Shown here: positions 60,771 to 61,310 of the stretch, in pieces | Numbering within the stretch: the first letter of the stretch is position 1 | Layout of the letters: every line of letters begins with the position of its first letter | Translations under genes and position numbers: made by a program | Notes under the pieces: model-generated | Seen by the model: the letters and a program-made list of their open reading frames with translations, nothing else | Databases searched by the model: none | What the model was told of the DNA's origin: nothing | Source: Escherichia phage SholemSchwarzbard | Length of the DNA: 64,000 nt | Direction: 5' to 3' (one strand) | Sequence record: PP925840.1

Positions 60771-60948
60771 CTAAACGAATAGGTTCATGAATGCCATATC
60801 CTTGAACAGAAATTTCTGTCGTAGGATAAATTCCATCAATATCACCCATATTCCAGGCTTCATTAAATTGCTGTTCGCCTGAATTACTAAACCACTCGGC
60901 GAAAGCATTTAGCACATCTTTAGAACCTTCAATAATTATCTTTGCCAT
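60727..60948 (-). CDS. small hypothetical protein, 73 aa
   Basis: ORF track. Confidence 0.6.
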   Translation of the reverse strand: MAKIIIEGSKDVLNAFAEWFSNSGEQQFNEAWNMGDIDGIYPTTEISVQGYGIHEPIRLVEYDLCTGEEVKYD

Positions 60949-61310
60949 TACAAACTCTCAGTAAAGGTACGAGCGATAACGTCGCGCTGCTGTTCCGGAG
61001 TCAGAGAGTTAAAGCGAACTGCATAACCGGATACACGAATGGTCAGCTGCGGATATTTTTCCGGATGCTTAACTGCATCTTCCAGAGTTTCACGGCGCAG
61101 AACGTTAACGTTCAGGTGTTGACCACCTTCAATTTTAACTGTAGGCTGTTGCTCAATTTCAATTTCACGGGCATGCAAACCATAGAAAATTTCTGGGTCT
61201 ACAAAAGAGTCCTCTTTAAAGGTTTTAGAGACAATAATTCGTGCTTGAATACCATCTTCAAAATAAATAGTACCTTTATGTGTGCCTTCAAGAATTTGAT
61301 ATGCTTTCAT
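60948..61310 (-). CDS. autonomous glycyl-radical cofactor (GrcA/YfiD-like), 120 aa
   Basis: C-terminal ...[57 protein letters not shown] contains the RVSGY glycyl-radical signature and matches enterobacterial GrcA as recalled. Confidence 0.8.

Follow-up and report, generated by a model that had tools for sequence, protein, structure and literature searches.

Introduction

Pyruvate formate-lyase (PFL) that has been cleaved by oxygen can be restored by small spare-part proteins. Both E. coli YfiD and T4 Y06I restore the O2-cleaved enzyme once the activase PFL-AE installs the glycyl radical (Wagner et al. 2001, Knappe and coworkers, as described in PMC8683613), and PMC8683613 gives these two as the only validated spare-part proteins. 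In E. coli GrcA, which is YfiD, residues 61–127 have the fold of PFL residues 693–759, the radical of G102 is handed to C419 of PflB, and the N-terminal half aids binding and activation (PMC8683613 and PMC12338860; the numbering of G102 is that of PMC12338860). Residues 1–60 are disordered; they play a part in binding damaged PFL and in activation, though none in catalysis (PMC8683613). For the T4-like phages, Nolan et al. 2006 (PMC1524935) listed vs.6 with a Gly_radical match; orthologs with this match were present in all six genomes examined, T4 and five T4-like ones.

Here we analyze the vs.6 gene of Escherichia phage SholemSchwarzbard within a stretch of 64,000 nucleotides (record PP925840.1), referred to hereafter as the window. 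The gene and, through its T4 ortholog, its function are already known, and its RefSeq name is GrcA. Our overall explanation, which we hold to be very likely, is that vs.6 encodes a GrcA-type PFL spare part and is an old phage gene patched with host grcA.

Results

The vs.6 locus

The window is a segment of a Tequatrovirus genome, and the 8 kb around the gene are 97–98% identical to phages Ge15, KRT47 and others. The list of its open reading frames has an ATG-initiated frame of 120 amino acids plus stop at 60948..61310 on the minus strand, the strand of all features described below. This frame is the Tequatrovirus ortholog of T4 vs.6/Y06I (NC_000866, 63557..63919) and a phage copy of the bacterial GrcA/YfiD; its designation as a phage autonomous glycyl radical cofactor draws on the frame itself, on DNA matches, on Pfam and on the PDB. 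At the DNA level it is matched by 755 phage records, many of them annotated “autonomous glycyl radical cofactor”, grcA or vs.6, and it is 99.2% identical to many Tequatrovirus vs.6/grcA genes. The gene order vs.8, vs.7, vs.6, vs.5, vs.4, vs.3, regB, vs.1, vs, tk.4 is the same in the window, in phage AR1 and in T4.

Within this order vs.6 is tightly packed between vs.7 and vs.5. Its TAA stop overlaps the ATG of the downstream vs.5 (TAATG; ORF 60727..60948, starting at 60948), and a putative Shine-Dalgarno GAGG (61316..61319) lies 5 nt upstream of its own ATG, overlapping the TGA stop of the upstream vs.7 (ORF 61318..61647). A scan for promoters and terminators around vs.6 returned 15 sites against 16.6 expected from shuffled sequence, and hence no excess. 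Elsewhere in the window, two adjacent frames of 157 and 105 amino acids (62322..62795 and 62812..63129) both start with MKTYQEFI(T/A)E and occupy the position of the Ip4 annotation in phage AR1; this shared start resembles the targeting leader that T4 internal proteins have in common.

Membership in the GrcA family

The C-terminal half of the protein carries the glycyl-radical domain. Pfam Gly_radical (PF01228) matches residues 60–101 with 67 bits against a cut-off of 22.2 bits, and translation gives the RVSGY loop at residues 92–96 (61023..61037). In alignments to 6OWR and to PflB (1CM5), G95 of this loop (codon 61026..61028) is equivalent to GrcA G102 and PflB G734 and is the candidate radical glycine. 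A phmmer search of the PDB aligned residues 22–120 to residues 28–127 of the NMR structure of E. coli GrcA (6OWR, E 9e-42), and residues 58–120 aligned to PflB 697–759, its last 63 residues (E 5e-26). Residues 61–120 are 100% identical to the last 60 residues, 68–127, of E. coli GrcA as translated from a RefSeq chromosome. The small stand-alone protein (120 amino acids, in the class of about 14 kDa) has the C-terminal Gly_radical as its sole recognizable domain, and together with the RVSGY loop and an N-terminal half homologous to that of GrcA this is the structural composition that defines GrcA. The NCBIfam equivalog model for GrcA (TIGR04365, spare_glycyl) aligns at its positions 25–126 of 126 to residues 20–120, with a model match region of 60951..61310. 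Its score of 154.9 bits falls below the 170-bit cut-off because the N-terminal half is divergent, no feature being missing; RefSeq phage records name the protein GrcA despite this score.

A full-length glycyl radical enzyme of the PflB/TdcE type, with a barrel of about 750–850 amino acids and catalytic cysteines, was considered and rejected, as residues 58–120 are the only ones that align. The names “pyruvate formate-lyase” and “2-ketobutyrate formate-lyase” found in some records are misnomers, since the alignment to PflB is confined to the last 63 residues of that enzyme.

An earlier note on this DNA, made from its letters, had described the same frame with its C-terminal sequence, had pointed out the RVSGY motif, had taken the last 60 residues to be essentially those of GrcA and had proposed a GrcA-type spare part. 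All of this agrees with the frame, the exact identity, the Pfam and 6OWR matches and the orthology to T4 vs.6. The earlier note did not recognize the frame as the characterized T4 vs.6/Y06I.

The N-terminal half is a diverged GrcA half

The part of vs.6 upstream of the host-like tract, 61133..61310, is low in GC (27–34%, GC3 0.20), and blastn found no match to its DNA in 5426 complete E. coli genomes. At the protein level, BLASTP aligned residues 1–60 to GrcA 1–67 with 35% identity over 40 amino acids (E 5e-6). Profiles of the N-terminal half, one from 10 phage and one from 12 bacterial sequences and both built without the C-terminal domain, were aligned by hhalign over 60 columns with a probability of 97.2% (E 4.5e-11). 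The N-terminal half is thus evidently a diverged homolog of the disordered half of GrcA, and the contention of the earlier note that it is unrelated does not stand. Fast divergence would be expected of a disordered region.

A patch of E. coli grcA DNA

Amino-acid identity is uninformative on transfer in this domain, because the peptide of the last 60 residues is 97–100% conserved across Enterobacterales; the decision falls to synonymous sites, the DNA for this peptide being only 82–93% identical between genera. We compared the gene with host grcA at the nucleotide level, a check for recent transfer that had been proposed beforehand. By blastn, grcA was found in 5426 of 5426 complete E. coli genomes at 95–99% identity, the best value being 97.3%, and the match was restricted to gene nt 179–363. 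When the alignment is anchored at the stop codon, the host-derived patch extends over gene nt 179–353 (60958..61132, codons 60/61 to 117/118), which encode the structured glycyl-radical domain. Only two of these 175 bases depart from E. coli grcA, both in synonymous changes (61095 and 61038), which leaves identical runs of 37, 56 and 80 nt. Pairwise alignment places a sharp boundary at TTGAAGGTGG, where the composition also steps, from a GC of 27–34% to 49% and from a GC3 of 0.20 to 0.43. No megablast match to any of the 5426 E. coli genomes was found in the rest of the 64-kb window, so that the 175-nt patch is its sole match.

The identity is specific to E. coli. Over a core of codons 62–117 (168 nt), the window differs from E. 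coli at 2 positions (dS 0.05) and from a cryptic Escherichia clade at 4 (dS 0.10), compared with 15 for Citrobacter (dS 0.47), 22 for Klebsiella (dS 0.65) and 27 for Salmonella (dS 0.96). Other phages give the same picture: over this core the window, T4, PE37, RB69, LF82-8 and G2285 all show 0–2 differences from E. coli (none in PE37, one in T4) against 13–31 from Citrobacter, Klebsiella or Salmonella, and in two IMG/VR contigs the tract is 100% identical to E. coli. At the sites that discriminate E. coli from Klebsiella, the window is of E. coli type in 21 of 22. An assembly artefact or contamination was considered and rejected, as T4, T2 and RB69 have the tract, and so do over 600 independent genomes and metagenome contigs. 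On these comparisons the C-terminal tract is best read as E. coli grcA DNA captured by a phage.

Origin and direction of the patch

The patch lies in an old phage gene. A tblastn search found homologs in 1591 phage records, from several genera of Straboviridae, T5-like Demerecviridae, Aeromonas phages and a jumbo Yersinia phage. Slopekvirus and Pseudotevenvirus (Klebsiella phage 150040, Enterobacter phage EC-F1, Citrobacter phage Miller) have unpatched orthologs of 120 amino acids with identical layout, in which the tract is 77–84% identical to every sampled host, with dS above 1.2 and a longest identical run of 20 nt. Both edges of the patch in the window are of phage type. Just upstream, the codons GTT AAA ATT resemble those of other phage lineages and differ from the CGC GTT of E. 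coli. The 3' end (60948..60957), comprising the final base of codon 118, codons 119–120 and the stop, is set apart from E. coli by three synonymous differences, the gene closing with GAG AGT TTG against GAA AGC CTG, and GAG AGT is also present in the unconverted genes of Slopekvirus and of EC-F1 (Pseudotevenvirus), which read GAG AGT CTA.

A sharply bounded segment of species-level host identity, accompanied by a shift in composition, is thus found inside a diverged phage homolog. It spans essentially the whole region alignable at the DNA level between the phage and host genes, beginning where homology begins on the left and ending three codons short of the stop, an extent that would be expected of a heteroduplex bounded by flanking non-homology. 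In our view, E. coli sequence replaced the 175 nt over which the phage and host genes are homologous, either by homologous recombination or by gene conversion with the host DNA as donor; the phage–host identity before recombination is put at only about 80–83%. The direction of transfer is host to phage, because the two halves of host grcA diverge to a similar degree (dS 0.80 and 1.15 between E. coli and Salmonella, 0.52 and 0.65 between E. coli and Klebsiella) and have a like GC3 (0.41 and 0.43 in E. coli), and in the phages only the tract is host-like.

Two other accounts of these data were weighed. The abrupt change in DNA identity at codon 60/61, with GC moving from about 30% to 49%, and an N-terminal half whose DNA has no E. 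coli match at all could be taken as marks of a novel protein, created by the in-frame joining of a 3' piece of the host grcA to a phage reading frame of unrelated origin. This we consider highly improbable: the N-terminal half is homologous to that of GrcA, orthologs with the same 120-amino-acid layout and no host-like tract occur in Slopekvirus and Pseudotevenvirus, T5-like, Aeromonas and jumbo phages also have homologs, and the gene closes with three codons of phage type. Since the N-terminal half is homologous, unpatched orthologs of the same layout exist and the gene ends in phage codons, the segment appears to be a gene-conversion patch, in which host DNA overwrote part of a pre-existing phage homolog, and not a new fusion. 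The other account holds that no recent transfer took place, and that the nucleotides are kept alike by strong purifying selection and a common codon bias, acting on a domain shared since ancient times. Constraint on the domain is indeed extreme, with 97–100% identity of the last 60 residues in Enterobacterales and in many phages, but hosts with the same protein sequence differ from E. coli at 7–16% of bases and unpatched phage genes for the identical peptide at about 17%, against only 2 of 175 in the window, and Klebsiella phages have the synonymous variants of Klebsiella. Selection as the source of the identity is accordingly an extremely remote prospect. In favoring an overwritten phage gene we retain one part of the earlier proposal of a chimeric gene with recently captured host sequence: the capture is right and the chimera is not, and the basis of the capture is the E. 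coli-specific nucleotide identity rather than an amino-acid identity common to all Enterobacterales.

Spread of the E. coli tract and a Klebsiella-type patch

Identity to E. coli grcA reaches at least 95% in some 624 phage records, and the matches listed all have an identical left junction. Between Tequatrovirus and Mosigvirus, the N-terminal half has a dS of 0.39–0.46 and the tract a dS of 0.02–0.10 (Fisher p 0.008 on synonymous differences), and the flanking genes vs.7 and vs.5 are only 42–85% identical. The E. coli-type tract would accordingly be younger than the split of the two genera, or have been exchanged between them, or have been acquired more than once. Tequatroviruses propagated on Yersinia or Salmonella retain the E. 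coli type, and so not every host re-converts the tract.

Jiaodavirus phages of Klebsiella present a different tract. Their proteins have E76L and K80E, the signature of Klebsiella/Salmonella-type GrcA. The 3' half of a Klebsiella-type grcA, its DNA obtained via the protein database, matches 33 Klebsiella/Raoultella phages at 95–97.7% over 168–173 nt, compared with only 88% for E. coli- or Shigella-named phages among the matches listed. Of the 22 discriminating sites, 17 are of Klebsiella type in RCIP0102 and 15 in KP179. The left junction is that of the E. coli patch, and the right junction falls a few codons earlier. The Klebsiella-infecting Jiaodavirus phages appear to have acquired Klebsiella grcA sequence at this site in an event of their own. 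Between the two Jiaodavirus genes, those of KP179 (locus L083, CDS 301–663) and RCIP0102 (L099, CDS 123–485), the dS of the tract (0.34) exceeds that of the N-terminal half (0.11), which suggests more than one Klebsiella-like donor or repeated conversion.

A Salmonella-type tract was searched for in phages and none was found, the best match being 83.8%. A Yersinia-type patch in one IMG/VR locus (L133, 91% to Yersinia) was rejected: its N-terminal half is bacterial (MITGIQITKA...) and so are its flanks, which match a Yersinia chromosome at 86.6% identity across 764 nt, marking it as host DNA in a viral collection. In the homologs of T5-like phages, Krischvirus, Aeromonas phages and jumbo phages, the tract is at most 86% identical to every sampled host, with no recent patch, and several of these homologs bear amino-acid signatures of the host-family type.

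Two Slopekvirus-like IMG/VR loci (L121, L122) have the N-terminal half of phage 150040 (L084) together with the Klebsiella-type LLDAVEHP in place of the LEDAVKHP of 150040; their tract is about 84% identical to the sampled hosts. Another group of IMG/VR loci (L123–L128, L140 and L142, on contigs of 32–154 kb) encodes longer homologs, whose C-terminal domain has a Pasteurellaceae-like signature (NPDKYP ... VITRTF). The best nucleotide match is Haemophilus for L123–L126, L140 and L142 (82–86%) and a Pantoea locus for L127 and L128 (80%). These longer homologs hint that host-type matching may extend beyond Enterobacterales.

Discussion

Function of the phage protein

T4-type phages shut off host gene expression, and for this reason an infected cell would be unable to replenish its GrcA. 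With a copy supplied by the phage, fermentation would continue through exposure to oxygen. The mechanism that we propose for vs.6 is transferred from T4 Y06I and E. coli GrcA. G95, in the RVSGY loop, would receive its radical from the host activase PflA; apart from NrdG, the window encodes no activase resembling PflA. The structured C-terminal domain (residues ~61–120) would substitute for the glycyl-radical domain that PflB loses on O2 cleavage at G734, the radical would pass to C419 of PflB, and pyruvate cleavage would resume. The divergent N-terminal half, as the counterpart of the disordered half of GrcA, would help to bind the damaged PflB and assist activation. The likely benefit to the phage is that fermentation in micro-oxic hosts goes on supplying acetyl-CoA, ATP and formate once host gene expression has been shut off.

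A different partner can be imagined for vs.6. The genome also encodes NrdG (40855..41325) and NrdD (41322..43139, motif RRTCGYLG), at the place that the earlier note had given for them, and the possibility raised there, that vs.6 is linked to this pair, amounts to a spare part or helper for the phage anaerobic ribonucleotide reductase, activated by NrdG and serving nucleotide metabolism. NrdD is likewise a glycyl radical enzyme with its radical glycine near the C-terminus, and a role in nucleotide metabolism was speculated on in Nolan et al. 2006 (PMC1524935). The sequences lend the link no support, however. No similarity of vs.6 to the C-terminus of NrdD, the context of RRTCGYLG, was detected (the best BLASTP hit, E 2.6, lies outside it); the vs.6 domain is of the GrcA/PflB (1CM5) type, the genes are about 18 kb apart, and the rescue reported for T4 Y06I is that of PFL with PFL-AE as the activase. 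We regard a role with NrdD as very unlikely. We consider it just as hard to accept, if not slightly harder, that the protein is a decoy, competing with host GrcA or PflB for PflA, or occupying damaged PflB unproductively, and so redirecting host metabolism. The half implicated in recognizing damaged PflB is only about 35% identical to that of the host, and its binding could differ; yet the catalytic domain has been kept identical to the host's and not disabled, and T4 Y06I is reported to restore PFL activity. A productive spare part for PFL is the function that we retain.

Two further frames stand beside the nrd genes. One of 157 amino acids (43136..43609) overlaps the nrdD start by 4 nt and has an HNH-like Cys/His pattern; we take it to occupy the position of T4 gene 49 (endonuclease VII). 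The other, of 102 amino acids (40217..40525), lies downstream of nrdG and is a glutaredoxin-like frame with a CxxC motif.

Recombination with the host

The DNA result shows that recombination between a T4-type phage and the chromosome of its host took place during the lifetime of E. coli as a species, and that a sister phage genus recombined with Klebsiella in like manner. A broader proposition, on which we place even odds, is that T-even-type phages time and again replace the structured domain of their grcA homolog with the corresponding sequence of whichever host genus they currently exploit: the E. coli type in Tequatrovirus and Mosigvirus, and in Jiaodavirus the Klebsiella type, there possibly from two or more donors. 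If true, strictly lytic phages, which destroy the DNA of their host, would here provide a natural case of recurrent homologous gene conversion from host to phage, and the tracts would form a datable molecular record of host association. The vs.6 gene offers a compact marker for host history in T-even phages and a natural test case for the homology requirement of phage recombination systems. A caution applies to any such use: for this domain only synonymous sites inform on transfer, and amino-acid identity says nothing. We found no prior description of the nucleotide patch in the searchable literature, a body that did not extend to Wagner 2001 or Miller 2003.

Comparison with known systems

The closest relative is T4 Y06I (its Swiss-Prot entry; gene vs.6, NP_049730), which occupies the same place in the vs.8-vs.7-vs.6-vs.5 block, has 120 amino acids, of which 118 are identical, and has the same E. 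coli-type tract. The two differences are Q54 (P in T4) and R73 (H in T4); at residue 73 the window has the residue of E. coli, and T4 has a private non-synonymous change. E. coli GrcA/YfiD (P68066; 6OWR) has the same two-half layout with homologous N-terminal halves, and its residues 68–127 are residues 61–120 of vs.6. The phage protein differs from it in being 7 residues shorter, in an N-terminal half that is ~35% identical over the 40 residues aligned by BLASTP and lacks the bacterial NSFWLLD block, and in its setting, an operon of phage genes in which codon usage beyond the patch is that of the phage. To the C-terminal domain of PflB (1CM5, 1H16) the likeness is that of residues 58–120 to PflB 697–759 (E 5e-26). 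Unlike PflB, vs.6 has neither the catalytic barrel nor Cys418/Cys419, and it can act only together with a damaged or inactive PflB. The short GrcA2 and GrcA3 proteins (NF008341, NF038360; ~78–80 amino acids) have the glycyl-radical domain in common with it, scoring 94–106 bits, but their models of 78–80 positions align only to residues 57–120, whereas vs.6 keeps a full-length divergent N-terminal half.

As for the patch, the nearest analogue known to us is psbA of T4-like cyanophages, a phage metabolic gene reported to exchange segments with the host copy (Sullivan et al. 2006, PMC1484495). Compared with psbA, the vs.6 patch is one block of ~175 nt that coincides with the whole phage–host homology region. 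Its carriers are enterobacterial T-even phages, which break down the DNA of their host, and it is matched host by host, with E. coli in one case and Klebsiella in the other.
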